A DNA stretch of 64,000 nt. Source: Squalus acanthias. Taxonomy: Eukaryota. The stretch covers positions 95,048,001-95,112,000 of the forward strand of contig CM059431.1 in assembly GCA_030390025.1 (NCBI GenBank), written 5' to 3'. The position numbers were made by a program, and so were the translations under genes. Numbering within the stretch: the first letter of the stretch is position 1; each line of letters starts with the position of its first letter. Under the pieces are notes generated by a model. It searched no databases and was not told the origin of the DNA. It was given only the letters and a program-made list of their open reading frames with translations. This document shows positions 2,530-47,810 of the stretch, piece by piece.

Positions 2530-2624
2530 CACTACAGTCCACTACAGTCTTAAATCCTTTCCTATTTCTTAATTCTACCCATAAAGTCTCCACTGCCTGC
2601 TTACCTCTCTTTATATCCTCTCTT

Positions 2625-7909: not shown

Positions 7910-9014
7910 GGCCTAGAAATTGGCCCACTTACCACCATGAGTTTTCATCACGATCTGGTCTAACGATGGCGGCCGCTACTCTAGCGCCCTTCTGTGGTAT
8001 GGGACTCGGTGGCTGCCATTTTGGTGAGGTCCTTAGTGCTGCTGAAGAAGAGAACAGGAAAGCAAGAGGTGCATGCGAGAAGGAGGATAACATATGAGGA
8101 TACCAGCATCTAGTATCCTTTCAGCCTCGCCGCTGGCCAAGAGCGCAGCCATTCCCCTGCCAAGAATGGCCAGCACTGTCTCCTCCAAGGGGGTGATTGG
8201 TACAGATTGTTGGTAGGTGGGTGATTGGTGGGGGGGAGTCATGCATTGATTAGTGTGCGAGGCTAGTGATGCAGTTGGTAGGCGATGGCTTTTGAAGATA
8301 CATTCACTGACATTGACCACTGGTCTGAGGTCATGAAGCTTCTTTCGGCACTGGAGCCAGGTGGTGGGGGCAACACTGACGGCCTCGGTGATCTGGTCCC
8401 ACATCATTCTTTCTGGAGGGCCCGCTGACCGCTGTGGGTAGAGGACCCCTCTAGCACTGTTGACCCTCTGCACAAAGCTGGAGTGCTGCGTGTGAGACAC
8501 CCTGGATGCCCCTTCTCTGGCTTGCTGAGCCAATTGTGTTAGTGCTGATGCACTTTTCCCTTTTTTTAGGTGCGGAAGGCAATTCCGCTTTAAGAGCTGA
8601 CGACTCCCATTTGGGAATTCCTTTTAATGTTAATTTTTTTTTCAGAAGGCAGTTGAGCTGTGAGGGCTAAACCTGAATATTTTTACATCATTTTTATTTT
8701 TATCATTTTAGAAGGCCTTTTAAGAAACCGACAATGCATTGCCCTTTTAAGATCCCACAATGTTTTGTGAAATCACAGCCTCATTTTCAGAGTCTGTTAA
8801 AGCTGCAACGTCCCTTGGGCACGCCACATTGGGGCCTGATGCCGGGACAAACACCACCAGGAGGGCGTTACATGGTGAGTTTAGCACTGGGCTAATGATC
8901 AGTAGTCCCCAGCGCCAATTTTTCAGTCCTGCTAGCGCCACCATTTTCAGCGGCCGTTAACCCCCAGCTGCGGTGGCACTGGCAGCTTTCGTGACGGCCA
9001 CGAATTTCTAGGCC
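7910..9014. mobile_element. Internally deleted non-autonomous Harbinger (~1.1 kb) with both TIRs
   Basis: Perfect 12-bp IR GGCCTAGAAATT (7910-7921) / AATTTCTAGGCC (9003-9014), CAT on both flanks; Myb/SANT remnant on minus (ORF 8033-8533 ..WDQITEAVS..QCRKKLHDL); left end similar to 13889-14010. Confidence 0.8.
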
Positions 9015-10787: not shown

Positions 10788-13885
<3,098 letters not shown>

Positions 13886-13888
13886 CAT

Positions 13889-16800
13889 GGCCACAAAATT
13901 ACCCGTCTTAGCATTACCATTTAAGGCCGATTTCAGCAGAAAGATGACGGCTGCCTCACTTCTGGCCACTTCTGGCATGGGCCGCGGCGGTCGCCATTTT
14001 GGGCAGGTAGGCAGCTGCCTGTGTGCGGCAGAAGAATTCAAATGAAGCAGATCGTGACATCAATCAATGCTGATTTGACGCATGACCTGCCATTTTGGAT
14101 GTCGCCATTCCAATCTACACCCTCTCCTAAACACAGACAGCTGACCATGCGTTCAGCTGAACTGAGGGACACCCCACCAGCGATATTTAAAGGGATCGCC
14201 AACAACTTTCAGGTAATTTACTTTTTGATTTCTACTGGCTCTGTATAATTTTGTGGAAGTGTTTGGAGCTTTCTGGAGTTGTTTAAAGTTGGTGAGGTGA
14301 CGGAGTGATGCAGCAAGTGGAGAAGGCCTTGCTTCTGAATTCAAGGATTCTGGTCAGACCACTTTCTCCCAGTCATGAGGGCTCTACTTGCAGTCCCCCT
14401 CGCGCTGCACCATGACAGATGAGAAGGAGCAGGGGCAGCAAAGAAGAGGACAAGCTGCTCGCAGAGTAAGGAGGAGGGGGGCAGGAGGGCTCTCTCCTAG
14501 CTACAATTAAGCCAGGAGCAGTGTATTCGGAGGCTCTGCTTCACCGGGGAGATGGTCACAGAACTCTGCCACCTCCTGCAACCAGACCTGCAGCCACAGA
14601 GCAGGGCGATAACAACACTGCCAGTGGCTCTTAAGGTGACCGTGACCCTCAATTTTTTTGCCACTGGATCCTTCCAGGCTAGAGCAGGCGACATAGTTAA
14701 CATCTCCCAGTTCGCCGTCCATCGCTGCATCCGAGAGGTCACAGAGGGACCTACTCCAGGAGAAGGGACTTCATTATCTTCTCTCTAAACAGAGAGAAGC
14801 AGGAGGCGCATGTGGCTTTGCCAGGATATCGGGTTTCCGCATGGTGCAGGGCGCCATTGACTGCACACACGCGGCTTTGTGGGCGCCGCATATCAATCCT
14901 GAGATGTACTGCAACTGCAAAGGCTACCACTCTCTTAATGTACAGTTGGTGTGCAGCCACGCCCAGCACATCTTGATGGTGAATGCCCGATATCCTGGCA
15001 GCAATCATGATGGCTTTATCCTGTGCCAGTCCGCTGTGCCAGCAATCTTCCACCCACCACGTCGAACCCATGGGTGGCTGCTTGGAGGCAAGGACTATCT
15101 GCTCCACACCTGGCTGATGACTCCCCTCCGGAACCCCACCACTCATGGCCAGCACTTATATAATGACAGCCATGCTGCCATGAAGAAGGCATTGAGCAGA
15201 CCAGCGGGGTGCTCAAGCAATGGTTCCACTGCCTTCAATGCTCGGGAGGAGCCCACTAGTACATGCTGGAGCGGGTGTCCCATTTCATGGTGGTCTGCTG
15301 CATTCTCCACAACTTGACCATGCGACCACGGGTTCTGGGACCACCTCAGGAGGAGAGGAGGAGGATGAAGAGGAGGAGGGGGAGGAAGAGGAAAAGGAGC
15401 AGAAGGAAGGGAGAAAGCAGGAAGCAAATTCCCGTTACGGATGGGCTGTCCATGCATGCATCATCATCATCATTCCAATAAATGAAACCCCAGTTAACCA
15501 TTGCTGAACACTTCACCACCTCACCATCCCTCAGTCACGGAACATCACAGTGTCCTCTTAGGCGCAAAGCTGAATTGAAAGCCACCACAAAGCAAACATT
15601 CCAAACATAATTTATAAATTATTATTTCCAATATTACATTACAAAGTCAACTAATCACCCTTGTGCATTCCCTTAGTGTCTGTTTTTCGTGTTTCTTTGC
15701 TTATTCTAGTGCTGCATGCAGTGCTACCCCAGTGGCTGCAGCATGGCTGATGGAAGACTGCTGACTTTCCATGGGGGTCACTGCAGATGGCCTTGCAGGA
15801 CGACCTCGAGCAGCTCCAGGCCTAGAACGCCCGGCTGTAGACTTGCAGCATTTCAGCATGGGGGGCAGCAGTCTGGGCTGGCTGGCTGACAGGCAGCAGC
15901 AAGGGCACTGGAGGAGTGGCAGAGGTGAGAGGACAAATACTGTCATCCTGAGAGAGGACAGCAGGTTCTTGCTACACGGAGCCACACCACACCCCAGGGT
16001 AGTGCCTTAGCATTCCTTGCCATCTGCTGGAGCACAGATTACTCGACTGCTGTGAGACCCTGCAAACCCCTTTCCACACTGGTAAACGCAGCCACGATGG
16101 CAACAAGCTGAATTTACATGAGACCAGTCTGAGCTTCCATTGCAGCACTCAGACGCTGGGTCACTTCCGCTTATTCTGCAATGGAAACTGAGACATTGCC
16201 CATCACACCCAGCATTATGGTTGGGTCCACAAGTGCTCTAATGGAGTTGCCCATCATTTCCAGGCTGGTAATCATGGACTCCAAGCTCTGCACAAAGCTC
16301 CGTGCAATGTTGGAGCTGGACTCCTCCATGCTCCTTGATAGTGACAAGAGGCTCTCTGGCAGGCCTGCCATTGTACCAAGCATTTCTGTGGGAATACTCG
16401 TCACCCTTCTTCTGAGGGCCGCAGCATCGATTTCCTCATCTGAGTCCTGTGCAGCAGAACTCGTGCACGAACTCACATTCCGGGGAGCTGGCACCAGAGC
16501 TACCCTTTCCCACTGGCCTGGCTGCAGCACACTTGTGTCCAGTGACTCATCATGTGCAGATCCTGCCTCTATACTACCATAGTGCCATTTTCTGAGCTGG
16601 TGCCTGGGAGTGCCAGATTGAATGATGGTGCCTCTTCTTCACTCAACTCCTCTAGTTGTTTGTGCACTGGCTGGACTGCTGGCAGTTCTTGGGTATTTGA
16701 AAGGAGAAAGCCACAAGGGTCGGGTCATGGTGAGGGGAGGGGGGGGGAAGCAAGATGTGCATGCTTACACCATCAGTGAGAAGTGAAAAGAGGTTGTGGG

Positions 16801-18112: not shown

Positions 18113-21100
18113 CCGTGATATGCTCCTCCTGCTATATGTGGGAAATCAGGGACGCTTCCTGTGTCCCTGACGACCATGTGTGTGGGAAGTGTATCTAGCT
18201 GCAGCTACTGATAGACCGCATTGCGGCGCTGGAGCTGCAGATGGATGCATATTAGAGCATTCGCGACACTGAGAACGTCATGGATAGCACGTTTAGCAAG
18301 TTGGTCACACCGCAGGTAAAGGGTGTACAGGCAGGAAGTGAATGGGTGACCAGCCAGGCAGAGTAAGAGGTGCAGGCAGGTAGTGCAAGGGTCCCCTGTG
18401 GCCATCCCCCTCTCAAACAGATATACCACTTTGGATACTGTTGGGGGGGATGAATTATCAGGGGAAGGCAGCAGCAGCCAACTTCCTGGCACCATGGGTG
18501 GCTCTGCTGCACAGGCTGGGAGGAAAAGGTGTGGAAGAGCTATAGTGATAGGGGACTCAATTGTAAGGGGAATAGATAGGCGTTTCTGCGGCCGCAAACA
18601 AGACTCCAGGATGGTGTGTTGCCTCCCTGGTGCAAGGGTCAAGGACGTCTCGGAGCGACTACAGAACATTTTGGAGGGGGAGGGCGAACAGCCGGTTGTC
18701 GTGGTGCACACAGGCATCAACAATATAGGTAAAAAACGGGATGAGGTCCTAAAAGCAGAATATAGGGAGTTAGGAGGTAAATTAAAAAATAGGACCTCAA
18801 AGATAGTAATCTCAGGATTGCTACCAGTGCCACGTGCTAGTCAGAGTAGAAATAGGAGGATATTTCAAATGAATACGTGGCTAGAGGAATGGTGCAAGGG
18901 GGAGGGATTCAAATTCCTTGGACATTGGAACCGGTTCTGGGGGAGGTGGGACCAGTACAAACGGGACGGTCTGCACCTGGGCAGGGCCGGGACCGATGTC
19001 CTAGGGGGATTGTTTGCTAGTGCTGTTGGGGACGGTTTAAACTAAAGTGGCAGGGGGTTGGGAACCTGAGCAGGGAGACAGAGGAAAGGGAAACAAGGAT
19101 AAAAGCAAAAGACAGGAAGGAGAAAAACAAAAGTAGAAGGCAAAGAATGTTCCCGATGGTCGGAGAGTCCAGAACCAGGGGTCATAATCTAAGGATAAGG
19201 GGTAAGCTATTTAGGACAGAAATGAGGAAGAATTTCTTCACCCAGAGAGTGGTGAACCTGTGGAATTCTCTACCACAGAAGGTAGTTGAGGCCAAGTCAT
19301 TAAATATATTTAAGAATGAGTTCGATATATTTCTTAAAGCTAAAGGTATCAAGGGATATGGGGAGAAGGCAGGTACAGGGTACTGAGTTTGGATGATCAG
19401 CCATGATCTCATCGAATGGTGGAGCAGGCTCGAGGGGCCGAATGGACTACTCCTGCTCCTATCTTCTATGTTTCTATGTTTCTAACTCAACGATTTAAAT
19501 CAAACATGGTCACAGTAAATAATAATTCATATAGGTCTGAGAGCGTTAAAAAACAAGCCTGAAGGCTTTGTGTCTTAATGCAAGGAGCATTCGGAACAAG
19601 GTGGATGAATTAGCTGCGCAAATAGAGGTAAATGAATACGATTTGATTGGGATTACAGAAACATGGCTCCAGGGTAGCCAAGGCTGGGAACTCAACATCT
19701 AGGGCTATTCAATATTTAGGAAAGATAGGCAAAAAAGAAAGGGAGGTGGGGTAGCATTGCTGGTTAAAGAGGGGATTAACACAATTGAAAGGAAGTATAT
19801 TAGCCCTGATGATGCGGAATCTGTATGGGTAGAACTGAGAAATAACAAGGGGCAGAAAATGTTAGTGGGAGTGGTATATAGACCTCCAAACAGTAATACG
19901 GAGGTTGGGGACGGCATTAAAAGGGAAATTAGAGAAGCATGCAGTAAGGGCACAGCAGTCATCATGGGTGACTTTAATTTGCATATAGATTGGGCTAACC
20001 AAATTAGTAAAAATACTGTGGAGGAGGAATTCCTAGAATGTTTACGGAATGGTTTTCTGGAACAATATGTCGAGGAACCAACCAGAGATCAGGCCATCTT
20101 AGACTGGGTATTATGTAACGAGAAAGGATTAATTAGCAATCTTGTTGTACGAGGCCCCTTGGGTCAGAGTGATCATAATATGATAGAATTCTTCATTAGG
20201 ACGGAGAGTAAAGTAGTTGAATCAGAGACTAGAGTCCTGAATTTAAATAAAGGAAACTACGATGGTATGAGGCGCAAATTTGGTAGGATTGATTGGGGAA
20301 TGTCACTCAAAGGGTTGACGGTGGATAGGCAATGGCAAACATTCAAAGACTGCATGGATGAACTACAGAATTTGTTCATCCCAGTGTGGCATAAGAATAA
20401 AACAAAAAGAATGACTCAACCGTGGCTAACAAGGGAAATTAGGGATAGCATAAGATCCAAGGAGAGGGCATATAAATTGGCCAGAAAAAGCGGTAACAAT
20501 GAGGATTGGGAGCAGTTTCGGATTCAACAAAGGAGGACAAAGGGATTAATTAAGAAGTGGAAAATAGAATATGAAAGTAAGCTTGCTGGGAACATAAAAA
20601 CTGACTGTAAGAGCTTTTATAGATATGTGAAGAGAAAAAGATTAGTGAAATCAAGTGTAGGTCCCTTGCAGTCAGAAGCGAGGGAAGTTATAATGGGAAA
20701 CAAAGAAATGGCAGACCAATTAAATGCATATTTTGGTTCTGTCTTCACAAAGGAGGACACAAATAACCTCCCAGAGATGCTGGAGAACATACGGTCTGAT
20801 GAAAGGGAGGAACTGAAAGAAATCAGTATTTGCAGGGAAATGGTGTTAGGGAAATTGACGGGATTGATAAATCCCCAGGGCCTGATAATCTACATCCTAG
20901 GGTACTTAAGGAAGTGGCCCTAGAAATAGTAGATGCATTGCTGATCATCTTCCAACATTCGATGGAATCTGGAACTGTACCCATGGATTGGAGGGTAGCT
21001 AATGTTACCACACTATTCAAAAAGGGTGGTAGAGAGAAAGCGGGGAATAAGCCTGACATCGGTAGTGGGGAAAATGCTAGAGTCCATTATAAAGGATGTA

Positions 21101-22430
21101 ATAGCTGAGCACTTGAAAAACAGTGACAGGATCGGACAAAGGCAACATGGATTTACAAAAGGTAAATCGTGCTTGACTAATCTACTGGAATTTTTTGAGG
21201 ATGTAACTAGGAAAATAGATAAGGGAGAACCAGTAGATGTGGTGTATTTTGACTTTTAAAAGGCTTTCGATAAGGTCCCGCATAAGAGATTAGCGTGTAA
21301 GGTTAAGGCACATGGGATTGGGGGCAAGGTATTGACTTGGATAGAGAACTGGTTGGCGGACAGAAAGCAGAGAGTAGGAATTAATGGGTCTTTTTCTGAG
21401 TGGCAGGCAGTGACTAGTGGGGTACCGCAGGGATCGGTCCTTGGACCCCAGCTATTCACAATATACATTAATGATCTAGATAAGGGAACTAAATGTAATA
21501 TCTCCAAGTTTGCAGATGACACAAAGCTGGGTGGGCGTGTGTGCTGTGAGGAGGTTACCGAGAAACTCCAGGATGATTTGGACAGGTTGGGTGAGTGGGC
21601 AGAAGCGTGGCAGATGCAATATAACGTGGATAAATGCGAGGTTATCCACTTCAGTGTCAAAAACAGAAAGGCAGACTATTATCTGAATGGCAATAGATTG
21701 GGAGAAGGGGAAGTGCAACGACACCTAGGTGTCCTTGTGCCCCAGTCGCTGAAGGTAAGCATGCAGGTGCAGCAGGCGGTGAAGAAGGCAAATGGTATGT
21801 TGGCCTTCATAGCGAAAGGGTTTGAGTATAGGAACAGGGATGTCCTGCTGCAGTTGTACAGGGCCTTGGTGAGACCACACCTTGAGTACTGTGTGCAGTT
21901 TTGGTTGCCTTATCTGAGGAAGGATGTTCTTGCCATGGAAGGAGTTCAGCGAAGATTCACAAGGCTGATACCTGGGATGGCAGGAATGACATATGAGGAG
22001 AGATTGGGTCGATTGGGCTTATACTCGCTGGAGAATAGAATAATGAGAGGGGATCTCATCAAAACATATAAAATTCTGACAGGTCTGGACAAACTAGATG
22101 CAGGAAGAATGTTCCCGATGGTCGGAGAGTCCAGAACCAGGGGTCATAATCTAAGGATAAGGAGTAAGCCATTTAGGACAGAAACGAGGAAGAATTTCTT
22201 CACCCAGAGAGTGGTGAACCTGTGGAATTCTCTACCACAGAAGGTAGTTGAGGCCAAGTCATTAAATATATTCAAGAATGAGTTAGATATATTTCTTAAA
22301 GCTAAAGGTATCAAGGGATATGGGGAGAAGGCAGGTACAGGGTACTGAGTTTGGATGATCAGCCATGATCTCATCGAATGGCGGAGCAGGCTCGAGGGGC
22401 CGAATGGCCTACTCCTGCTCCTATCTTCTA
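18113..22430 (+). mobile_element. Near full-length CR1 LINE: ORF1 (Cys-rich N-terminus, SGNH/GDSL esterase) and ORF2 (EN-RT) with a few stops and frameshifts
   Basis: ORF1 CSSC..CGKC at 18120-18195, GDSIVRG, GINNI and DGLHL in ORF 18383-19045; ORF2 pieces 19757-20923, 20830-21259 and 21332-22348; CR1 3'UTR at 22349-22430. Confidence 0.93.
19147..19483 (+). mobile_element. Short same-family CR1 3' end inserted in the ORF1-ORF2 spacer of the host CR1
   Basis: Nearly identical to 22109-22430 and carries a full (CTATGTTT)n tail; the flanks rejoin to match the uninterrupted spacer of the CR1 at 47130-47260. Confidence 0.88.
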
Positions 22431-22519
22431 TTTTTCCAGTTGCTCCGAGATATCCTTTACCATTGCACCAGGTAGGCAACACACCCTCCTGGACTCTCGG
22501 TCGCGTCTGCAGACAAACA

Positions 22520-22935
22520 CTTACATCTCATTCCCTAGTGACAGAGCGAGGCAGGGTGAAGGAGCGCAAGGTTTTGCCCATATGACAAGCTTTCGCATGG
22601 TGCTGGATGACATTGACTGCATACACATCGCCTTGTGTGTTCTCCATGACCAGCATGAAATTTTTATGAATCCAAAGGGATTCAACTCCCTCATCCTGCA
22701 GTTCTGTACTCGCAATCCCAGCAACACTCACAACTCTTTCATTGTGTGCCAATCTTCAGTGCCACCTTCATTCCAACTAGGCCACCTTTACAGGCTGGCT
22801 ATTAGGTGACAAGGGCTATCCCTGCCAGACATAGCTCATGACTCCAGTTAGGAACCCACGCACAGAGGCTTAGCAGGCCTACAGCAGACCGCCATGCTGC
22901 CACAAGGAACATCATTGAGCAAACGATCAAGGACT
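22520..22935 (+). pseudogene. Degraded Harbinger transposase fragment
   Basis: DDIDCIHIAL, KGFNSL, WLLGDKGYP, LMTPVRNP and HAATRNIIEQTI motifs across shifted frames. Confidence 0.75.
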
Positions 22936-24360: not shown

Positions 24361-25106
24361 GATAGGGCTGAATTTTGCCAGTGCTCAGAGTGCAGGTTTG
24401 AAAGTAGGAAACCCGCTGCCAACCCGCCTGCATGCAAGTCTCCCAGGTGTTGGGTCTGTCTGCGCAGAACTGACCCGACACCAAGCGGCGAGGGAGACAA
24501 TTGAGCTCATTAAATGGCTTGTTACAAGCCAATTTAATGCTATTTTGAGCATGCCTTGTAATTTTACGTGCTCCCCCATGGGTTACCCGCTGCTCGGGGA
24601 ACACGCCAGCTCACCCTGGCATGAGTTGAGTCTGCTTTGATTTATCTGATAACCCGACAGCTGCAGAAGTGGTATAAAGGATACCATGTTGCAGCTGTTC
24701 AGTTTCAGAGCTCAGAAACTGTTGGTTACTGAATTTGTAAGACATATAGGGGTAGAAATTAGGTCGCGCCCCATTTGGGGCGCAAATATCGTCCGGACGC
24801 AAATATTAGCGCCTGGCGCTAATTATCGGCACTGACAGGAAACTTCACTTTTACCGCCCCGGGAGGTGAGTGGAGCGCTAAAGCAGGCGCTGCACACCTG
24901 TCTTAAGGCGCAAAGGCCAAGGAGTGAGGCGCTAACTCAGTGCACGAGCGCAGCGCAGCTGCTGCCAGTTAGCGAGGGAACACAGACACACTGGCGCCGG
25001 CCACTTCTTAAAGCGGGGGGGGGCCACTTGCTCCCCAGCCACACCCTGCTCATTGCAGCCTTGAATCTCAGCCTGGAGAGACCTGTAATCCATTTTGCTG
25101 CCAAGC

Positions 25107-27036
25107 ATGGAGAGGGTGAGAGAACGCGCTCATCGCTTCACCGAGCGGGCCTTGGATGCTCTGGTTGACGCAGTGGAGCGCAGACGATGTATGCTGTTCC
25201 CTGAGAGTGGCAGGAGGCCTTTGCCACGCGAGTTCAGAAGAGTGTGGAGGGAGGTGGCTCAGAGCGTCTCCTCCAGGAGCATGGTGCCCAGGACCCATGT
25301 TCAATGCCGCAAAAAGTTCAACGACCTCACTCGGGTCGTCAGGGTGAGTGGCTTTTTCTCAATACCTCTCCATCCCTCCATCTCAACCTCACTCTATGGC
25401 CAGAGGGTCTTAAAACCCCAATGCACAACACTCATCCAACACCTATGGCCCTTTCATGAAACACACACACACATTCTACACTTTGCATACAGTAAGGGCT
25501 ATTCACCTATGGGAGGCACATCAGGCAAGACCATGGCTGTATATTGTAAGGGCTATTCACCTATGGGAGGCACATCAGGCAAGACTATGGCTGTATATTG
25601 TAAGGGCTATTCACCTATGGGAGGCACATCAGGCAAGACCATGGCTGTATATTGTAAGGGCTATTCACCTATGGGAGGCACATCAGGCAAGACCATGGCT
25701 GTATATTTACTCAGATGCTGTCCTTTTTCTTGCAGGCTAAGCTGGCTCATAATCGGAGACAGCAGCAACGGACAGGTGGAGGGCGGCTTCAGCTGCAACC
25801 CCTCAGCGATCTGGAGGAGCGCGTCCACAGGATTGTGGCAAGCCGGGTGATCGGTCCCATCGCCACTGGAGACGCCGACCCCGTTGTGGACAGCAATGGT
25901 AAGGTCATCACCTTTTTGTCCTCTGTCCTTCCACTTGTCCCTCACAATACCAGCCTTTGACACTTTCAATCCAACTTGCTAACTCGCTGCACTTATTCCT
26001 CCCTTACTGCCACCCTGTCCTCACGCTAAAGCCACTCTTGTACCTCCCTGCTTTCAGATGGTGATTCACCAGCTGAGGAGACGGGCCCTGAAGCTGCCAC
26101 TGGGAGTGATGCTGCAGCCGAGGAGGAAGAGGAAGCCGGAGCATCAGTGCCACCCTCTCCCGAGGAAGCCCATGCCCACACTGGGAACACGCCTTCCCCG
26201 GAGGGGAGCAGGGGGGAAGGGTCTGATGATGGTGAAGCTCCAAGACCCAGCGGGCTGCAGCAACGCCATGGGGGGGTAGGGAAGAACGGGGGCCTTCTCC
26301 CCAGAGGGAGAGTATGCCAGACACTCCTACTGCAATGGACGCAGAGGAGGAGCGGCTGATTGCAGAAATGAACACCCAGGCGGTGGGCATGCACACTGAG
26401 CTCATGGGTGCAGTGGGAAGGGTGCCCGAATGCATTGAGTCACTGGCAAGGAGTGTGGAGCACTTCGCTGTAGCACAGGCGGATGCCACACTAACGCTTA
26501 GTGCTGCAATTCAGTCACTGGCTGCCGTGATCCCACCTCTGACTGCTCTCATACAGACTCAGATTGAGGCCACGCGAGCACAGACTGCTGCCAACCTCGA
26601 TGGTTCGTGCACATGTCCCCGGGGCTGTCACCGCACCGCAGCAGGCCAGCAATCTGTTCTCCGGCAGATTGCTCCGGATGCTGAAGTGCTGCCCCGTGGG
26701 AGTGCCAGTGTGTCGGGCGAGCAGGGAGTTGCTGGCCTCTCTCACGATGACAGCATTCCTGCTGCCAACACTGTCACTTCTCCACTGCACTTGCCACCGC
26801 CTGTAGGACAGACTGCTGCCGCCCATGCAGAGTTGGTGCAGTCTGCAGCCGGGCCCTCCAGGCCCAGAAGTGGTCGAGGCCGTCCTTCAGGGGCATCTGC
26901 AGTGTCAGGGTCTGACGAGCAGCAGCCTTCCACCAGCCTTGCTGCAGCCACTGAGGTCCCATTACGGAGGAGCAGTAGGGTTAGAAGGGGGGAAGTGCGC
27001 AAGGGAAGGAGATCACCCTCGAAGGGCAAAAAGTAG
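25107..27036 (+). CDS. Harbinger Myb/SANT-like DNA-binding partner protein; predicted exons 25107-25343, 25736-25898 and 26058-27036, with one apparent 1-nt frameshift, probably in the G7 run at 26270-26276
   Basis: Exon 1 MERVRERAHRFTERALDALVDAVERRRCMLFP..VWREVAQSVS..QCRKKFNDL; donors AGG|GTGAGT and ATG|GTAAGG, acceptors TTGCAG| and TTTCAG| with compatible phases; the C-terminal helical region (ORF 26314-27036) is homologous to 15701-16530. Confidence 0.8.
25492..25707. repeat. 54-bp tandem repeat x4 in intron 1 of the Myb gene
   Basis: Unit GTAAGGGCTATTCACCTATGGGAGGCACATCAGGCAAGACCATGGCTGTATATT; one substitution among four copies. Confidence 0.95.
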
Positions 27037-27331
27037 GAGGTGTGCCAAAATGCTGGTCATTTTTTTATTAAAGGCCGAGGTTCATGGTCCAACTTTTGTT
27101 TAGTGTTTTGGACATTATCTCCAGGTTGTGAGAACCAGTTATGTTATTGACTGTTTTTTTTGTGTTTATTTCTATGAGTTTGTCATGAGGAATTGACACA
27201 CACAGAGTTTGTAAAATAAATAAGTTTCTGTTTTCAAAATATACATGGCTGGTGGTTGGAATTATTGGTGCCTTGGCCGGCTTAGGGGTTGCGTGCTGGG
27301 TTGATTAGTGTTTGTAGCAATGGCAGGGGCC

Positions 27332-28492
27332 CTAGAAGCGGCTTGCTATTAGTCGTTGACGGACGGCCCTTGCAGTTTGACCATTGTGGGCCGCCCTCCT
27401 GCCTTGGTGCTGCTGATGATCATCGTCCTCGTCCTCTTCCTCCTCTTCCTCCTCCTCCTCTGGTGGTGCTACAAGGCCTGGTGGCATTGGCTGGGTCCTG
27501 AGGATTGCCATGTTGTGCAACATGCAGCACACAACTACGAAGTTCGAAACTTGCTCAGGCGAGTACTGCAGGGCTCCTCCGGAATGGTCCAAACAGCGGA
27601 ACCGTTGTTTCAGCACGCCGATTGTGTGCTCAATAATGTTCCTGGTTGCTTGATGGCTTTCATTGTACCGCAGCTCAGCAGGGGTGTTTGGCGTACGGAG
27701 CGGTGTCATCAGCCAGGTGCTCAATGCGTACCCCTTGTCCCCCAGAAGCCAACCAACTGGCTGATGCGGTGCCTCGAAAACTTCTGCCACAGTAGTCTGG
27801 CGCAGGATGAAAGCATCGTGGCAGCTGCCCGGATAGTGGGCATTGACAGCGAGTATCACCTGTCTGTGGTCACAGACCAACTGCACATTCAAGGAATGGA
27901 ACCCCTTTCTGTTCCTGAATTCCTCTGCATTCTCTCGCGGAGCACGCAAAGCCACATGCGTGCAGTCAATGGCGCCCTGCACCATGGGGAAGCCCGCTAC
28001 CCTTGCAAAGCCCAGAGCACGGTCACGCTGCTTGTCTGGGGTCATAGAGAAAGAGATGAAGTCTCGTCTCCTTCTGAAGAGGGCATTGGTGACCTGCCGG
28101 ATGCAGCGATGCACCGCAAACTGGGAGATATTGGCGAGGTCCCCAACAGCAGCTTGGAATGAGCCAGTGGCGTAGAAGTTCAAAGCCACTGTGACCTTCA
28201 CTGCCACCGACAGAGACGTCCTGGACCTCAGCTGAGGCTGCAGATCTGGCTGCAGCAGGTGGCAGAGCTCAGTGACCACCTCCTTGCTGAATCGCAGCCT
28301 CCGCAAACACAGCTCCTCGGACATATGGATGTAGGAGAGCTGTTCACGATATACCCTGGGAGGGTAAGCTCTCCTGTACATGCGCCTGATGGCCCTCCTC
28401 CGTCTGGCCATCATTGCCACTCTCTGTCTGCGTCTCTGTATCCTCCGATTCAGCTGGAGCAGGACGACGCCCCCAATCATTGCAGCCCCCAT
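27332..28492 (-). CDS. Harbinger (HARBI1-like, DDE_Tnp_4 type) transposase, 386 aa, uninterrupted
   Basis: Catalytic triad contexts GAIDCTH, LLGDKGY and RNIIEHTIG; HTH region ATGSFQ..SQFAVHRCIRQV; NRKGFHSLNVQLVCD; PGSCHDAFIL; acidic C-terminal tail. First ATG is at 28492 (the ORF track starts at a TTG). Confidence 0.93.
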   Translation of the reverse strand: MGAAMIGGVVLLQLNRRIQRRRQRVAMMARRRRAIRRMYRRAYPPRVYREQLSYIHMSEELCLRRLRFSKEVVTELCHLLQPDLQPQLRSRTSLSVAVKVTVALNFYATGSFQAAVGDLANISQFAVHRCIRQVTNALFRRRRDFISFSMTPDKQRDRALGFARVAGFPMVQGAIDCTHVALRAPRENAEEFRNRKGFHSLNVQLVCDHRQVILAVNAHYPGSCHDAFILRQTTVAEVFEAPHQPVGWLLGDKGYALSTWLMTPLRTPNTPAELRYNESHQATRNIIEHTIGVLKQRFRCLDHSGGALQYSPEQVSNFVVVCCMLHNMAILRTQPMPPGLVAPPEEEEEEEEEDEDDDHQQHQGRRAAHNGQTARAVRQRLIASRF

Positions 28493-28686
28493 ATTCTCTT
28501 TGCCAGAAAAGTAATGAGGTACAGCAACTAAAGTAGCAACAAAGTTAGGATGAATAGGCAAAACTACCTCACAAAGCGTTGAGTCAATGTAGAAGTCTCT
28601 CTCTCTCTCTCCCCGAATCTCTCTCTCTCTCTCAGAACGAGTGGTGCATAAATGTCGACCACAGAAAAAGACAGGAAGAGGCCCCC

Positions 28687-28831
28687 TTTAAATAGCACCC
28701 CCCCCAGCCCCACACCGATTGATAACGTTCCAGTCTTCCGGTCGTTGGAAGCGCCAGGCGGTAAGGCAGGGGGCGCCACTCAATTTCCGCTACGGGGCGC
28801 CCCAAGGGCGTTGCACCATGGAATGACGTCA
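28687..28831 (-). promoter_or_regulatory. Candidate transposase promoter (TATTTAAA box and palindromic TGACGTCA CRE site)
   Basis: Minus-strand GCTATTTAAAGGGG at ~28683-28696 and TGACGTCA at 28824-28831; TATTTAAAGGG also precedes the genes in the degraded copies (~13033, ~14184). Confidence 0.5.
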
Positions 28832-30168
28832 CAATCTGCGCGCGCAGGTGGTCGCAGCGGTAAGTTTTAGCGCCGCCGCACAATCTCAAGTTAAGTTCTC
28901 GAGCGGCGCAAACAGCGCTGTGCCGGGGCGTTAGCGGCTTAACGCCCCATTAGCGCCCTCTTAAGGCGCTAACGGGAGGCGCAACCAAGTGAATTTTTAC
29001 CCCATAGAGATTTCTTTAGCTTGCAAGTGTTCAGAGCCAACTGTATATCCAGTGGCACCTCATTGGAACAACCTCTCTCACCATTGACAGAACGCTTCTG
29101 TCATCTCAACTGCAGCTGCCATCTGTTCCAGCAACACCGGCCCTTGGAAAAATCATACCTTCGTCCCCTGAATCCTTCCCGATCAGCCCCAACACCAACA
29201 TCACCAGGCACACCAACATCGCCAACAACATCACCAACAACATCACCAACAACAACACCAACCTTTCTGCCATCACCTGATGCTGCACAGGACAAAAGGC
29301 CTTAAGCAACTGATAACATTGCTGCCCGGGAGGCCAGCGATGGCATCACCATGGCCAGATTTACTTCACTTGATGCTGTACACCCTGGCAGCCACATGAT
29401 GCGCCAGGTTGACACCATCCCACACCAGCACCATAAAGCATCGTTATAATGTCCATGCCATTCCTTTCACACTCATCACAATAGCGGGGCCGCGGTGGGG
29501 GGGGGAGGGGGGGGCGCAAGTTATGTCTCAACATTCACTGGAACTCACTAAGACACTTCTCAAGGTGCGCTCAGATCTGTCCAATAAAGTGAAGTGTTGA
29601 AAATATAGCTTTCAATGTATGACAACATATTAACAAAAAACTTCACATGAACATTGGCTAAACCTCTCAAGTGCCTACCCTTGTGTGTTGTTAGTTGGTA
29701 TGAATGGATTAGGATGAGGGTGAGTGTGAGGGGTGGCTAGTGAGATGGGGAAGTGATAATGTAGATAGAGAGGGATGGGTGGAGGTGCAAGGTAAGTTGG
29801 TGTGAGTAAAGATGTGCAGGAGTAGGGTATGGAAGGCAGAGTGAGGGGGATGTGATGAGAGGCACAGCAGGATGAAGTTGTGTGTGGCTTTGCAGTAACG
29901 TTTTGTGATCTACTGAGATATTGAGAGGTTGGTGCCACTGCAGCCAGGGACTCCTGACGACATCCCTGCTTGTGCCCTCCTGTGCAATGTGCAACCAGAC
30001 TGCATTGATCTCCTGGGGAGGTCTCTTCCGCCCATGGGAAGGGAAGAGAATCTCCCTGCGTGCTGTGACTCCCTCCATAAGCATATGGAGGGAGTCATGC
30101 TTGAGCCTGGGTGCAGACGTGCACCTCTATGCAGTGCTTGTCAGTGTTTGCAGCACCTCAATGCTGTA

Positions 30169-34637: not shown

Positions 34638-35831
34638 TCATACAGTTAAATCGTCAGACCGAGCTCTACTGCTCGCTTTGCTTAACCTGCTCAATGGTCT
34701 TGTGTCCGCTAAGCTCTCGCTAGTTCCTGCCGGTGGCTCTGGCTCTGTCTTTTCGCCCTCTTCTTCTGGTTCTGCCAATGGTACAGGTTCTGATTCTGGC
34801 ACCAGTTCTGCTTCTGCTTGTGGTTCTGGTTCTGCCTGTTGTTCTGGTTCGGGATCTTCTTGCTGCTCGTAGGATAGCAACGTCTCGTTGTAGACTTTAA
34901 CCAGATCTTCCACCGGACCAACACTCTTAGTTTTCTCTTGGTAGCTGATGAAAGGAGGTGGGCTCACATTTACCCCAACCTCTGTCATTGGGAAGAAATG
35001 GGTCACTGGTTTGTCTTCTTCCAGGAGTTTGTAGCCTTTGGATTTCTGCACGGAGGGCACGCTGATGGAATGAAATGGCTTCTGCGAAGGATAGTCTACA
35101 TGCTGTTGGGCTGGCTCCCTAAAAGCAAACCTGATTTTTTTCCAGCCCAGGTGGCTTATCTCTATGAAATTCAGGAAGAGAGACACTGAAGCCACAGCTA
35201 GCATGAAAATGACAAAAACTGTCTTCTCAGTTGGCCTGGAGACAAAGCAATCAACTATATTGGGACAAGGCCATCTACCGCAGCGATACAATGGCAAGAT
35301 ACGGAATCCATAGAGAAAATATTGACCAACCACAAAACCAACTTCAAAAATTGTTTTGAAAATGATGTGGCAGATGTAGGTTCTCAGCAACGTGCCTTCC
35401 AGGCGGAACTTCTTGTTTGTCTTACTGGACTCTTTAATACCGTCATCTGGTGCTAAAGGCAGCCTCTCCTCGTTCATCTCTTGTTGTCTATTCATGTCTT
35501 CCTCCCTCTCTTTTCTCTTTTCCTCCATCCTTACGTGATGAACCGCATGGCCAACGTAGACCAAGGATGGTGTGGAGACGAAGATGATCTGGAGGACCCA
35601 CAGTCTTATGTGGGAGATGGGAAAAGCTTCGTCGTAGCAGACATTCTCGCAACCTGGCTGTTGGGTATTGCAAACAAAATCTGACTGTTCATCTCCCCAC
35701 ACGAACTCGGCAGCCGTGCCAAGAATTAGGATTCGAAAAATAAAGAGCACTGTCAACCACACTCTCCCTATCACAGTGGAATGCTCATTAACTTCCTCCA
35801 AAATGTTTCCCAGGAAACTCCAATCACCCAT
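34638..35831 (-). CDS. GJA8: Gap junction alpha-8 protein (connexin 50), 397 aa, single coding exon
   Basis: N-terminus [76 protein letters not shown]; extracellular-loop cysteines (C-x6-C-x3-C and C-x4-C-x5-C); C-terminus [17 protein letters not shown] typical of Cx50. ATG at 35831 (the ORF track starts at an upstream GTG). Confidence 0.97.
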
Positions 35832-35845
35832 TTTCACGGATGTAC

Positions 35846-35861
35846 CTGTTTAAAAGAAAAT
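35846..35861 (-). promoter_or_regulatory. GJA8: Splice acceptor of the GJA8 5'UTR intron
   Basis: Minus strand reads TTTTCTTTTAAACAG|GTACATCCGTGAAAATG: polypyrimidine tract and AG 14 nt upstream of the ATG, the usual connexin layout (non-coding exon 1 plus coding exon 2). Confidence 0.75.
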
Positions 35862-38359: not shown

Positions 38360-38630
38360 GGGCATAGAAATTCTATCACACCGCACCTATTTACGGGCAC
38401 TAAACGGGCGCACGAGTGTCCAATATGGCATGCTGTCACCGAGTTATGCAAGCTACAATTTGAGCCTTGCACAAGGGCATGGATAGCACTGCCTGTGGCT
38501 GCCAAGGTCACCTTAGCTTTTATGCCACGGGCTCCTTTTAGGCTGCAGCAGGTGACATCAGTGACATCGCAATTCGCAGTCCACTGCTGTATCGGGGAGG
38601 TCACTGAGACACTCCACACTAGAAGGAATA
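38360..38630 (+). mobile_element. Harbinger terminus plus transposase N-terminal relic
   Basis: TAT|GGGCATAGAAATTC terminus; LPVAAKVT..SQFAVHCCIGEVTETL. Confidence 0.7.
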
Positions 38631-38639
38631 CATACATGT

Positions 38640-39005
38640 GCCAGCCTTGGCTCAATAGTACCAATCTCACCTCTGAGTCAATAGGTTGTGGGTTCAAATC
38701 TGACTCCAGAGACTTAAGCACATAATATAGGCTAACACTTCTGTGTAGTACTGAGGCAGGGCTGCAGTGTCTGTGGTGCCATCTTTTGGATGAGACATTA
38801 AGCTGAGACATTAAGCCGTCTGCACTCTCAGGTGAACATAAAAGATTCCATGGCACTATTTCAAAGAGCAGGGGAGTTCTCTACGATATTTATCCCTCAA
38901 CCAACATCACTGGGCATTATCTATTTCCTGTTGATGGGACCTTGCTGTGCTAAAATTGGCTGTTGCTTTTCCTACATTACAACTGTGACTACACTTCAAA
39001 AATAT
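38640..39005 (+). mobile_element. tRNA-derived SINE with a Deu-like central domain (SacSINE1-like)
   Basis: A-box TGGCTCAATAGT and B-box GGGTTCAAATC; central GTACTGAGG..GCTGCA..TTTTGGATGAGACATTAA..CATGGCACTATTTC recognised from memory as the DeuSINE domain. Confidence 0.7.
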
Positions 39006-44219: not shown

Positions 44220-47200
44220 ACATAGAAACATAGAAACATAAAAGATAGGAGCAGGAGTAGGACATTCGGCCAATCGAGCCTGTTCCGCCATTTAATGCGA
44301 TCATGGCTGATCATCCAAATTCAGTACCCTGTCCCTGCTTTCTCCCCATATCCCTTGATCCCTTTAGCCTTAAGAAATATATCTAACTCCTTCTTGAATA
44401 TATTTAATGAATTGGCCTCAACTGCCTTCTGTGGTAGAGAATTCCACAGATTCACCACTCTCTGGGTGAAGAAATTCCTCCTCATCTCAGTCCTAAATGG
44501 CTTACCCCTTAGCCTTAGACTGTGACCCCTGGTTCTGGACTCCTCCACCATCGGGGACATCCTTCCTGCATCTAGTCTGTCTAGTCCTGTTAGAATTTTA
44601 TAAGTTTCAATGAGATCCCCTCTCATTCTTCTAAACTCTAGCGAATACAAGACCAATCGTCCCAATCTCTCTTCATACTTCATTCCTGCCATCCCAGGTA
44701 TCAGTCTGGTGAATCTTCGCTGCACTCCCTCCATGGCAAGAACATAAGACGACCAAAACTGCACACAATACTCAAGGTGTGGTCTCACCAAGGCCCTGTA
44801 CAACTGCAGCAAGACATCCTTGCTCCTGTACTCGAATCCTCTCACTATGAAGGCCAACATACCATTTGCCTTCTTAACCGCCTGCGGCACCTGCATGCTT
44901 ACCTTCAGCGACTGGTGCACAAGGACTCCCAGGTCTCATTGCACTTCCCCTTTTCCCAATATATTGCCGTTCAGATAATAATCTGTCTTCCTGTTTTTGC
45001 CACCAAAGTGGATAACCTCGCATTTATCCACATTATACTGCATCTGCCATGCATCTGCCCAATCACCAAACCTGTCCAAATCATACTGGAGTTTCTCTGC
45101 ATCCTCCTCACAGCACACACGCTCACCCAGCTTTGTGTCATCTGCCAAGTTGGAGATATTACATCTAGTTCCCTCGTCTAGATCATTAATATATATTGTG
45201 AATAGCTGGGGTCCTAGCACCGATCCCTGTGGTACCCCACTAGTCACTGCCTGCCACTCGGAAAAAGACCCGTTTATTCCAGCTCTTTGCTTCCTGTCTG
45301 CCAACCAGTTCTCTATCCAAGTCAGTACCTTACCCCCAATCCCATGTGCTTTAACTTTGCACGCCAATCTCTTGTGTGGGACCTTATCGAATGTCTTCTG
45401 AAAGTCCAAATACATCATATCCACTGGTTCTTCCTTATCTATTTTCCCAGTTACATCCTCAAAAAATTCCAGTAGATTAGTCAAGCATGATTTACCTTTT
45501 GTAAATCCATGTTGACTTTGTCCGATGCTGTCACTGTTTTCCAAGTGCTCTGCTATTACATCTTTTATAATGGACTCTAGCATTTTCCCCACTACCGATG
45601 TCAGGCTTACCGGTCTATAATTCCCCATTTTCTCTCTACCACTTTTTTTAAACAGTGGGGTTACATTAGCTACCCTCCAATCCATGGGAACTATTCCAGA
45701 GTCTATAGAATTTTGGAAGATGACCAGCAATGCATCTACTATTTCTAGGGCCACTTCCTTAAGTACCCTAGGATGTAGATTATCAGGCCCTGGGGATTTA
45801 TCGGCCTTCAATCCCGTCAATTTTTCTAACACCCTTTCCCTACAAATACTGATTTCATTCAATTCCTCCCTCTCATTAGACCCTATGTTCCCCGACATCT
45901 CTGGGAGGTTATTTGTGTCCTCCTTTGTGAAGACAGAACCAAAATATGTATTTAATTGGTCAGCCATTTCTTTGTTCCCCATTATAAATTCCCCTGATTC
46001 TGACTGCAAGGGACCTACGCTTGACTTCACCAATCTTTTTCTCTTCACATATCAATAGAAGCTTTTACAGTCAGTTTTTATGTTCCCTGCAAGCTTACTC
46101 TCATATTCTATTTTCCCCCTCTTGATTAATCCCTTTGTCCTCCTTTGCTGAATCCTAAAGTGCTCCCAATTCTCAGGTTTGCTGCTTTTTCTGGCCAATT
46201 TATATGTCCTCTCCTTGGATCTTATGCTATCCCTAATTTCCCTTGTTAGCCACGGTTGAGTCACCATTTTTGTTTTATTTTTATGCCAAACAGGGATGAA
46301 CAAATTCTGTAGTTCATCCATGAGATCTTTAAATGTTTGCCATTGCCTATCCACCGTCAACCCTTTAAGTAACATTCCCCAATCCATCCTAGTCAACTCG
46401 CGCCTCATACCATCGTAGTTTCCTTTATTTAAATTCAGGACCCTAGTCTCTGAGTCAACTACTTCACTCTCCATCTTAATGAAGAATTCTATCATATTAT
46501 GATCGCTCCTCCCCAAGGGGCCTCGCACAACAAGATTGCTAATTAATCCTTTCTCATTACATAATACCCAGTCTAAGATGGCCTGATCTCTAGTTGGTTC
46601 CTCGACATACTGGTCCAGGAAACCATCCCGTTTACACTCTAGGAATTCCTCCTCAATGGAATTGTTACTACTTTGGTTAGCCCAATCTATATGTAAATTA
46701 AAGTCACCCATGATAACTGCTGTAACCTTATTGCACGTGTCTCTAATTTCCCATTTAATGCCATCCCCAACCTCAACATTACTGTTTGGGAGTCTGTATA
46801 CAACTCCCACTAATGTTTTCTGCCCCTTGGTATTTCTCAGCTCTACCCATACAGATTCCACATCATCAGAGCTATTATCCTTCCTTACTATTGTGTTAAT
46901 CTCCTCTTTAACCAGCAATGCTACCCCACCTCCTTTTCCTTTTTGCCTGTCCTTCCTGAATATTGAATACCCCTGGATGTTGAATTCCCAGCCTTGGTCA
47001 CCCTGGAGCCATGTCTCCGTAATCCCAATTATATCATATCCGTTTACATCTATTTGCGCAGCTAATTCATCCACCTTATTATGAATGCTCCTCACATTAA
47101 GACACAAAGCCTTCAGGCTTGTTTTTTTTAACACTCTTGGACCATTTAGAATTATTTATTACTGTAGCCCTGTTTGATTTACACCCTTGATGTCTCTGCC

Positions 47201-47472: not shown

Positions 47473-47810
47473 GAAATTGTGATCCTCATGAGTTTTTGGG
47501 GCGTGTGGGGTAGCTCGCCACTGGATGTGTCCAAGCACTGAAATCTGCTCTTGAACAGTCCTATCTTCTTCCCCAGCTCAAGTCTTGTTGCTGTGTTGGC
47601 CTGGTTGCATGCGCCCTCTGGCTTCGTTCTCAGTTGTCTCAGTGAAGTCATGAGCCATGGCTGTAGTGGATAAGCTTAGTCTCAGCGAGACTATCCTTGG
47701 ACATGGTTTTCCTCAAAGAAGAGGTCAGCGAGTATAGAATGGTTCAGAATAAAACCATCATGGCAGCTGTTGGCATGCTTGGCATTCACATGTAGGATAC
47801 ATATATCCAT
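47473..47810 (-). pseudogene. Degraded Harbinger transposase fragment
   Basis: HDGFIL, YPLQPWLMT and IGLFKSRFQCLDTSSGELPHTPQK on the minus strand. Confidence 0.7.

Follow-up and report, generated by a model that had tools for sequence, protein, structure and literature searches.

Introduction

Among the described vertebrate Harbinger systems, the zebrafish element Harbinger3_DR belongs to a teleost family that was reportedly rebuilt from decayed copies by Sinzelle et al. in 2008. Like the shark family of the present study, it is described as a two-component system with a DDE transposase, a Myb-like protein and a 3-bp target duplication. In the account of PMC9392472, which cites Sinzelle et al. 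2008 for the role of the helper beside the transposase, the Myb-like protein binds the ends of the element, recruits the transposase to them and mediates its nuclear import. The shark family differs from Harbinger3_DR in that its transposase is naturally open and some of its siblings keep an open helper frame, and in that its helper gene has two introns and encodes a long shark-specific C-terminal region without a Pfam family. HARBI1 and NAIF1 share the domains of the shark genes (DDE_Tnp_4 for HARBI1 and Myb_DNA-bind_5 for NAIF1) and are treated in PMC9392472 as single-copy host genes without transposon ends, whereas the shark locus ends in terminal repeats, is flanked by a target duplication, and has empty sites and siblings in huge numbers.

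Harbinger-Snek of the sea krait (Laticauda) is likewise a vertebrate PIF/Harbinger with a transposase, a Myb-like gene and a very high copy number, and PMC8437027 reports for it many deletion and solo-ORF derivatives, 269 fully intact, transcribed copies and possible ongoing activity. As given in the same report, Harbinger-Snek has a reptile host, was horizontally transferred and has both genes transcribed, whereas the shark copy received 0 RNA reads in the poly-A run consulted; the likeness is one of description and implies no protein-level relatedness to the shark family. In addition, a recent, expressed Harbinger burst is described in the newt (PMC5741667). On these accounts of intact or expressed elements in sea krait and newt, the view of an earlier note on this DNA, that vertebrate Harbingers are mostly decayed, is outdated. 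The PIF/Ping/Pong elements of plants also mobilise short non-autonomous derivatives, according to PMC2836001, and their canonical target is given as TWA (TTA/TAA), in contrast to the ATA of the one shark insertion examined here. For cartilaginous fish, the elephant-shark analysis of PMC9179366 suggested a loss of Harbinger. Among the literature titles listed on Harbinger in sharks, elasmobranchs and Chondrichthyes, none concerned an elasmobranch Harbinger family. The closest sequences that we found are gene models of Pristiophorus japonicus, Heptranchias perlo, Heterodontus francisci and others, annotated as "putative nuclease HARBI1" and "uncharacterized protein".

Results

In the present study, a structurally complete PIF/Harbinger DNA transposon of 4255 bp with exact boundaries was delimited at 24749-29003 of the window, that is, of the whole 64-kb stretch of DNA that was analysed. 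Its identity is given by a DDE_Tnp_4 transposase, a DDE fold, a Myb/SANT gene, terminal inverted repeats and a 3-bp target site duplication, all of which are present. The features are as follows.

4204-5523, minus strand: empty site, a paralogous copy of the host repeat, unbroken at the insertion point (paralogue alignment)
24746-24748, no strand: left copy of the 3-bp target site duplication, ATA (termini comparison, empty-site contigs, paralogous empty site)
24749-24760, plus strand: left terminal inverted repeat, GGGGTAGAAATT (termini comparison, pattern scan)
24779-24935, no strand: TTAGCGCC-like motifs grouped in the left subterminal part, at 7 sites with at most 1 mismatch, 3 of them exact (motif scan)
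24806-24822, no strand: palindrome within the left cluster (motif scan)
25107-25343, plus strand: exon 1 of the Myb-like gene, 79 codons, Myb/SANT trihelix domain (Pfam, alignment with P0007 and P0122)
25344-25735, plus strand: intron 1, 392 nt, GT..AG (junctions fit shark homologues)
25492-25707, plus strand: tandem repeat of 54 bp, 4 copies, inside intron 1 (repeat scan)
25736-25898, plus strand: exon 2 of the Myb-like gene, 163 nt (homologue alignment)
25899-26057, plus strand: intron 2, 159 nt, GT..AG, with an in-frame stop inside (ORF list, P0122 alignment)
26058-27036, plus strand: exon 3 of the Myb-like gene, in which the frame switches (stop as encoded 26357-26359, ancestral stop 27034-27036)
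26270-26276, plus strand: run of seven G, frame break (P0122 alignment, sibling contigs)
27064-27069, minus strand: AATAAA past the transposase gene (motif)
27215-27220, plus strand: AATAAA past the Myb-like gene (motif)
27332-28492, minus strand: transposase gene, a single ORF of 386 aa, DDE_Tnp_4, D176/D252/E288 (ORF, Pfam, alignment, structure model)
28757-28972, no strand: TTAGCGCC-like motifs grouped in the right subterminal part, at 7 sites with at most 1 mismatch, 3 of them exact (motif scan)
28992-29003, minus strand: right terminal inverted repeat, GGGGTAAAAATT (termini comparison, pattern scan)
29004-29006, no strand: right copy of the 3-bp target site duplication, ATA (termini comparison, empty-site contigs, paralogous empty site)

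The two 12-nt termini, GGGGTAGAAATT on the left and GGGGTAAAAATT on the right (as reverse complement), match at 11 of 12 letters. A scan of the 64-kb window with the pattern GGGGTARAAATT returned two matches without mismatch, which are the element's own ends at 24749(+) and 28992-29003(-), and 15 matches when up to 2 mismatches were allowed; the terminal inverted repeats claimed in the earlier note were thus recovered. The 3-bp duplication claimed there was also confirmed. The paralogue of the flanking repeat at 4204-5523(-) is 81% identical and carries one ATT where the element locus has ATA...ATA, and contigs in which 24745 is joined to 29004 were obtained from three public runs (one in X1, four in X6 and one in X10). 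The joint omits 4258 letters, equal to the 4255 of the element plus 3. The insertion is confirmed because both the paralogous empty site in the window and the empty-site contigs of the three runs agree on it. Since paralogous copies of the flanking repeat account for these contigs, they are no evidence of allelic absence. The strict PIF/Harbinger target duplication is given as 5'-TWA-3' by Han et al. 2015 (PMC4482050), and the ATA of the one insertion examined fits none of the compositions TWA, ANT, CWG and TNA listed in that source. One loose-end consensus past 29003 in X10 starts with TAT, the reverse complement of ATA, at an agreement of just 0.58. The retention of CpG that had been claimed was borne out as well, the observed/expected ratio reaching 0.55 within the element, compared with 0.37 and 0.41 on its two sides.

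The transposase was found as described in the earlier note, uninterrupted over 386 aa and with D176, D252 and E288 within the expected motifs. It matches Pfam DDE_Tnp_4 over the whole profile (positions 1-158 of 158, E 3.1e-39) and can be aligned end to end with 13 relatives; in the column of E288, the E is missing in 10 of these 13. At position 149 this copy has S, where sibling copies and 10 of the 13 aligned relatives have P. The closest relative found, among shark gene models, is P0001 at 66% identity, and no relative near 90% identity was present in a collection of 5.8 billion protein sequences; therefore the shark family is unrepresented as protein in that collection. The AlphaFold model (pLDDT 75.4, pTM 0.74) was compared with 48161 chains by VIA-align, in which piggyBac (Z 9.7, 237 residues aligned, rmsd 4.9) and ISCth4 (9.2) came first, followed by Tn5 (Z 8.8), Tn4430 (Z 8.7) and then integrase cores, all at moderate Z values. 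A Foldseek search of the PDB with the same model returned nothing at E <= 0.001. As modelled, the protein has the RNase H-like fold of a DDE transposase, the best solved folds all being DDE transposases.

The Myb-like gene runs toward the transposase gene, and the 3' ends of the two converge in the 295 nt that separate their stop codons. Exon 1 matches Pfam Myb_DNA-bind_5 (E 1.3e-9). The junction of exons 1 and 2 is matched exactly by P0007, of which residues 8-82 align with residues 5-79 of exon 1 and residues 83-116 with residues 1-34 of exon 2. Intron 2 must be spliced out because it holds an in-frame stop. The gene is collinear with P0122, a full-length shark helper homologue. Identity of the helper to the closest shark sequences reaches 60% over exon 1 and, with P0122, 32-40% over the C-terminal half. 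Hence, of the Myb/SANT gene as first proposed, the convergent arrangement and the two GT..AG introns, which fit the shark homologues, stand, and its intactness does not, since exon 3 is frameshifted.

The frame breaks at the run of seven G: residues 140-264 of P0122 align with 25736-26275 in one frame and residues 264-553 with 26275-27024 in another. Because the frame changes inside this run, the helper gene as encoded ends after 233 aa, at the TGA of 26357-26359, where about 459 aa would be expected. The part lost is a C-terminal region of about 250 aa that is conserved in shark relatives; its conservation comes in blocks, with a basic tail at the end, and it belongs to no Pfam family. An exhaustive HMMER search with the 240-aa C-terminal ORF gave 9 matches at E <= 1e-3 among 1.84 billion representatives (best 6e-22), the named ones being shark proteins, and the conservation of the helper C-terminus spans three genera. 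In a word-indexed collection, none of 6230 candidates matched the C-terminal half (26242-27036) at E <= 1e-3. The predicted complex of the transposase with the 240-aa ORF scored 0.00 in both runs, with the fold of the partner uncertain, and this has no bearing on binding. An open, full-length frame is found in the transposase gene and not in the helper gene, so that the copy lacks what autonomy would ask of both genes. The helper frameshift means that the copy at 24749-29003 is not self-sufficient as encoded.

The run was further compared with sibling contigs. At 26270, a state with the run two G shorter (5-G), in which the helper frame is kept, makes up 128149 of 1118168 of the contig depth in X1, 3170 of 35216 in X6 and 220.5 of 1024.9 in X10, from 12, 3 and 1 contigs respectively; these depths are sums over contigs and not copy numbers. 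Such siblings are a minority of about 9-21% of contig depth, and the two-letter deletion is absent from about 79-91%. Other copies share the 7-G state with this one, and among the siblings it appears to be the commonest. Two other origins of the break were considered. An intron in its place is rejected, as it would have to use the sole bridging GT..AG pair, which is 29 nt long (26276-26304) and aligns as coding with P0122. An assembly error at the G run is judged unlikely, with less certainty for this particular locus, as most of the short-read contig depth in three runs matches the state of the window.

At least two of the coded organisms carry the family in highly repeated form, and both near-identical pieces and derivatives with internal deletions occur. 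Counted over the element together with 1 kb of its repeated surroundings to the left and to the right, contig pieces number 70373 in X1 (10498 at >=99% identity, 22083 at 95-99% and 37792 at 90-95%) and 14644 in X6. X10 is a run of only 81 million letters, and contigs from it that lie within the element depart from this copy by 1 of 248, 1 of 303 and 2 of 244 letters at depths of 53-292. Internal-deletion joints in sibling contigs include 27014 to 28582 and 25811 to 27011. The copy itself has at least 16 positions at which most of the sibling depth has another letter, a divergence of at least 0.4% from the family majority.

The RNA check suggested for the two genes returned 0 reads on either of them in one raw poly-A RNA run (X21, organism G), of which about 12% was read. 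Of the public runs listed with matches to this stretch, none is recorded as RNA. X10 had been guessed to be RNA and behaves as DNA, its contig 25056-25513 being unspliced across the border of exon 1 and intron 1, and it has the empty-site joint; the RNA nature of X17, X18 and X19 is guessed in the same way. The predicted intron junctions had no match among the 15 of 124 contig joints listed.

Discussion

We believe that 24749-29003 is very probably a young Harbinger copy with an apparently competent transposase and a frameshifted helper, which most likely depends on siblings with an open helper frame. In the mechanism proposed here, the DDE transposase would cut at the short terminal inverted repeats by means of D176, D252 and E288 and reinsert the element, duplicating 3 bp of the target. 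The Myb/SANT helper would bind subterminal repeats, most likely the TTAGCGCC motifs, and would carry the transposase to the element ends and into the nucleus. These motifs lie within about 250 bp of each end and are most likely the binding sites of the Myb-like protein, a putative role that fits their distribution, since all 6 exact matches in the 64-kb window, and 14 of the 31 with at most 1 mismatch, fall in the two ends of the element. The 233-aa product retains the DNA-binding domain and is without the conserved C-terminal half and its basic tail. With no full-length helper of its own, the copy would rely on open-frame siblings. The need for the C-terminal half of the helper and mobility at the present day are what we infer in this scheme.

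The recent mobility suggested by the earlier note is plausible for the family, because it is very abundant and has near-identical pieces in the runs of several organisms. Of that proposal, the two-gene element with an intact transposase also holds, and the part that fell is the helper of this copy, owing to the frameshift.

It might be asked if the copy is autonomous as it is, the 233-aa helper with its trihelix domain being sufficient and the C-terminal half dispensable, which we regard as improbable. Exon 1 is intact and matches Myb_DNA-bind_5, and the account in PMC9392472 assigns DNA and protein binding to the trihelix motif, locating there the known DNA- and transposase-binding activity, in a domain that this copy has kept. 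Furthermore, the 7-G state in most of the sibling depth is as expected if amplification was not blocked, and since that state is so common, to equate the frameshift with a dead element may be too simple. However, the C-terminal region is conserved across shark Harbinger helpers of three genera, which speaks against its being dispensable. In DNA transposon families, defective copies that are moved in trans commonly predominate. Solo-ORF variants are described in PMC8437027, and the sole strongly basic tail lies in the C-terminal region of a helper that is said in PMC9392472 to mediate nuclear import. Another reading, that slippage of the polymerase or the ribosome at the G run restores the frame in 7-G copies and yields a short and a long isoform, we hold to be very improbable. 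The break falls exactly within a seven-G homopolymer. In each of the two organisms examined, the 7-G state seems to predominate among siblings, and the frames on both sides of the run are open and homologous to P0122. Against this, no RNA reads fell on the genes in the poly-A run X21, open-frame 5-G siblings can account for amplification in trans, and slippage of such a kind is, to our knowledge, not known in eukaryotic DNA transposons. The bolder proposal that the family is still mobile in living sharks, with slippage at the seven G giving a short isoform for DNA binding alone beside the full-length helper, is equally far from likely. If the slippage reading was true, a programmed frameshift would control a eukaryotic cut-and-paste transposon, and we know of no such control described so far.

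That both genes were taken over by the host from a Harbinger and domesticated, as HARBI1 and NAIF1 were, with no mobile element at the locus, has next to no probability. It is in agreement with the names of the relatives, as every named one among the 120 listed in the transposase search is a "putative nuclease HARBI1". However, the terminal inverted repeats, the target duplication and the paralogous empty sites are in place, similar contig pieces run to tens of thousands with deletion derivatives and a frameshifted helper, and several decayed relatives lie elsewhere in the same 64-kb window. A domesticated gene should be a single-copy locus without transposon ends, and 24749-29003 is neither single-copy nor free of such ends. 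Our preferred reading is still that of a young transposon copy with a frameshifted helper, and the numerous shark gene models that bear the name "putative nuclease HARBI1" represent copies of transposons rather than orthologues of the host gene.

Should the family still be active, cartilaginous fishes would join sea kraits, newts and perhaps the coelacanth as vertebrates with live Harbingers, and the impression of Harbinger loss given by the elephant-shark account in PMC9179366 would also be corrected. Otherwise the locus is an ordinary transposon copy, whose value lies mainly in repeat annotation and as a pointer to open-frame siblings. The copy at 24749-29003 is an ordinary young member of a very abundant shark family and not an intact, self-sufficient element. 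The target of its insertion is an interspersed repeat of greater age, and a connexin (GJA8-like) gene lies about 5.6 kb away. Besides this one young copy, the 64-kb window holds a single decayed copy with two genes and several older fragments.

Boundaries and insertion site of the element

In the present study, the Harbinger copy was delimited as an element of 4255 bp with a G+C content of 0.555, in which the stop codons of the helper and transposase genes face each other across a 295-nt spacer. Its main features are the following.

24749-29003, Harbinger element with two convergent genes
25107 (start), plus strand, Myb-like helper gene; the first 79 codons are a Myb_DNA-bind_5 domain (E 1.3e-9)
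27215, plus strand, AATAAA in the spacer (motif search)
27064 and 27165, minus strand, AATAAA in the spacer (motif search)
27332-28492, minus strand, transposase gene, a single 386-aa ORF (ORF and Pfam)

The termini, GGGGTAGAAATT and GGGGTAAAAATT (reverse complement), are identical at 11 of 12 positions. A degenerate 12-mer made from them matched the 64-kb window twice with zero mismatches, these being the two ends of the element, and 15 times with two or fewer, so the terminal inverted repeats described in the earlier note were borne out. The triplet ATA adjoins the element at each end. The element is nested in another repeat, a copy of which (4204-5523, minus strand, 81% identical) is uninterrupted at the insertion point and has a single ATT there, against ATA-element-ATA here. 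Furthermore, contigs of three public sequencing runs (one in X1, four in X6 and one in X10) join 24745 to 29004 and omit 4258 letters, that is 4255+3, with 3-4 letters fitting either side. Because the uninterrupted repeat copy and the joints of the three runs agree, the boundaries and the 3-bp duplication, which had also been proposed, are exact. These empty sites are paralogous and give no evidence of allelic absence, since the flanks are repeated.

The inner arms of the element are not collinear, yet both are dense in the motif TTAGCGCC. All six exact matches in the window lie within 24806-24935 and 28867-28972, and 14 of the 31 matches at one or no mismatch lie within 24779-24935 and 28757-28972. 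From this clustering we infer putative binding sites of the helper protein. In addition, the CpG observed/expected ratio is 0.55 in the element vs 0.37 and 0.41 in the flanks, which is consistent with an element younger than the flanking repeat.

The transposase

The Pfam DDE_Tnp_4 match of the transposase (E 3.1e-39) covers profile positions 1-158 of 158, and the protein aligns over its entire length with 13 relatives, found in sharks, rays, sturgeons, a lungfish and a caecilian, at 40-65% identity. Among the 120 relatives listed, elasmobranch proteins predominate and the best is 66% identical. The acidic residues are D176 (AIDCTH), D252 (LLGDKGY) and E288 (IIEHTIG); together with the ORF they confirm the uninterrupted 386-aa transposase with three DDE motifs that had been claimed. 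An AlphaFold model built from the 13-relative alignment had a mean pLDDT of 75.4 and a pTM of 0.74. Foldseek with this model returned nothing at E <= 0.001, the weak matches at the head of its list being transposases and integrases. In an exhaustive structural comparison with 48161 chains, piggyBac came first (Z 9.7, 237 residues aligned, rmsd 4.9), followed by ISCth4 (Z 9.2), Tn5 (8.8), Tn4430 (8.7) and then integrase cores. The DDE-fold signal of the predicted structure is moderate but consistent.

In the same alignment (A1), the column of E288 holds K, R, Q or G in 10 of the 13 relatives, annotated "HARBI1", from sawshark, devil ray, electric ray, sevengill, white shark, whale shark, catshark, caecilian and lungfish; E is retained in the database proteins P0022, P0069 and P0110 only. 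Among shark proteins annotated "HARBI1", many may have lost catalytic activity or may belong to a variant lineage.

The helper gene is interrupted by a frameshift

Two introns were found in the helper gene, the first of 392 nt (GTGAGT..TTGCAG) and the second of 159 nt (GTAAGG..TTTCAG). The Pristiophorus gene model P0007 aligns by residues 8-82 with exon 1 residues 5-79 and by residues 83-116 with exon 2 residues 1-34, and the exon 1/exon 2 junction is thus matched exactly by homology. Intron 1 also contains a 54-bp unit repeated four times (25492-25707, 98% matches).

Downstream lies a 240-aa ORF (26314-27036), for which a word-indexed protein search gave no match; a search of 1.84 billion representatives gave nine at E <= 1e-3 (best 6e-22), the named ones being uncharacterised proteins of three shark genera. 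The protein P0122 (554 aa), a full-length helper homologue with an N-terminal Myb_DNA-bind_5 domain, was compared with the window by tblastn and aligned in three collinear pieces.

25119-25337, P0122 residues 65-137
25736-26275, P0122 residues 140-264
26275-27024, P0122 residues 264-553, in a frame different from that of the preceding piece

The switch of frame is located within the G7 run at 26270-26276, in exon 3, the last exon. An intron could bridge the two frames by only one GT..AG pair, of 29 nt (26276-26304), and since this interval aligns as coding sequence, the break is read as a frameshift and not as an intron. As encoded, the helper has 233 aa, ends at a TGA at 26357-26359 and lacks both the basic tail at the C-terminus and the blocks conserved among the aligned relatives. 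The canonical, phase-compatible splice sites reported in the earlier note hold for two real introns, whereas the gene as a whole is disrupted at 26270-26276. Likewise, the near-intact two-gene Harbinger, and its interpretation as a candidate active or revivable copy, stood in part: the element, its ends and its transposase were supported, but the helper gene is broken.

Another Pristiophorus protein, P0123 (801 aa), joins a RING/B-box/PML-like coiled-coil N-terminus to exon 2-like and C-terminal helper parts; this fusion is either an artefact of annotation or a piece of transposon that has been exonised.

If it acts as its characterised Harbinger homologues do, the transposase would excise and reinsert the element. 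The Myb-like protein of Harbingers is described as binding the ends, recruiting the transposase and importing it into the nucleus (PMC9392472, citing Sinzelle et al. 2008). The copy in the window could supply transposase and would supply only a truncated helper; it would most likely depend on siblings with an open frame.

Abundance of the family and sibling copies

The family was surveyed in public sequencing runs. The 20 rows listed (11 studies, seven organisms coded A-G) each contained 36-71% of the words sampled from the element and its 1-kb flanks. At a likeness of at least 90%, X1 (organism A) gave 70373 contig pieces (10498 at >=99%, 22083 at 95-99% and 37792 at 90-95%) and X6 (organism B) gave 14644; these counts and the depths are not copy numbers, because repeated flanks are included and depths are summed over contigs. 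In X10 (81 million letters), contigs inside the element differ from the copy in the window by 1 letter in 248, 1 in 303 and 2 in 244, at depths of 53-292, and therefore represent many near-identical siblings or, if X10 is RNA, abundant transcripts. One X10 contig is unspliced over the exon 1/intron 1 border, which argues that the run is DNA. Internal-deletion derivatives were present in X1, with joints such as 27014->28582, 25811->27011 and 26066->26557 in one contig each.

A form two letters shorter at 26270 made up about 11% of the depth in X1 (12 contigs), 9% in X6 (3) and 21.5% in X10 (1). By frame arithmetic, this form joins the frame of exon 3 to the long ORF, and thus open-frame siblings exist, as a minority. 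At no fewer than 16 of its 4255 positions, the copy in the window has a letter other than that of most sibling depth; at one of these, its transposase has S149 vs P in the siblings and in 10 of the 13 aligned relatives. In about 12% of X21, a raw poly-A RNA run of organism G, no read fell on either gene; 150 reads were obtained, all in the low-complexity bins 28556-28764 and 29183-29391.

Comparison with known Harbingers

The element has the features that define the superfamily: its transposase is of the DDE_Tnp_4 type, its second gene is Myb-like, and its ends carry terminal inverted repeats flanked by the 3-bp duplication. The target triplet of the one insertion examined, ATA, differs from the canonical TWA of PIF/Harbinger and matches none of the group-defining triplets given in the account of Han et al. 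2015 (PMC4482050). Vertebrate Harbingers that are intact or were active recently have been recorded before: sea kraits are reported to have 269 copies that are fully intact, both genes being covered by RNA-seq reads (PMC8437027), and a newt to have had a recent expressed burst (PMC5741667). In the grey reef shark, Tourist and Harbinger types are given as the most frequent DNA transposons (PMC12498223), and Harbingers are reported as undetected in the elephant shark (PMC9179366). Among the papers listed by our literature searches, none dealt with a Harbinger family of elasmobranchs.

Other features of the window

The window also holds older Harbinger remains and one clear host gene.

~14501-16638, decayed two-gene Harbinger of the same convergent layout, 68-72% nucleotide identity to the young copy
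22516-22885, 38435-38647 and 47475-47798, transposase-like fragments, 25-39% aa identity to shark models
8132-8527, 13138-13332 and 29881-30114, Myb-like fragments, 25-39% aa identity to shark models
34641-35849, minus strand, single-exon connexin gene (Pfam Connexin E 1.3e-101, Connexin50 E 1.8e-22)

The decayed element has a transposase with several frameshifts (plus strand) and the C-terminal half of a Myb-like gene (minus strand), and the flanking repeat of the young copy contains one of the Myb-like fragments. Judging by these remains, Harbinger activity in this lineage evidently extends over a long time. The connexin shows 93% identity to GJA8 paralog b of Scyliorhinus and of Pristiophorus, and 86-87% to the skate counterpart; the Harbinger lies about 5.6 kb past its 3' end. 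Together with the mostly elasmobranch relatives of the transposase, these identities point to a shark host with no proteins of its own in the collection searched.

A 22-bp satellite (unit CCCAGCCCCGATTACTGACCCC, about 690 copies, 85% matches) fills 48955-64000, has a strong excess of C on the plus strand and continues past the window end. At 10824-12861, a stretch of imperfect poly-G (about 2 kb, 82% matches) accounts for spurious Gly/Pro "ORFs" of 600-800 aa. In addition, a near-complete LINE lies at 18350-22345 (plus strand), in which the first ORF is GDSL-esterase-like and endonuclease and reverse transcriptase are also present, and further LINE endonuclease/reverse transcriptase pieces lie at 1176-3146 and 44939-47155, both on the minus strand.
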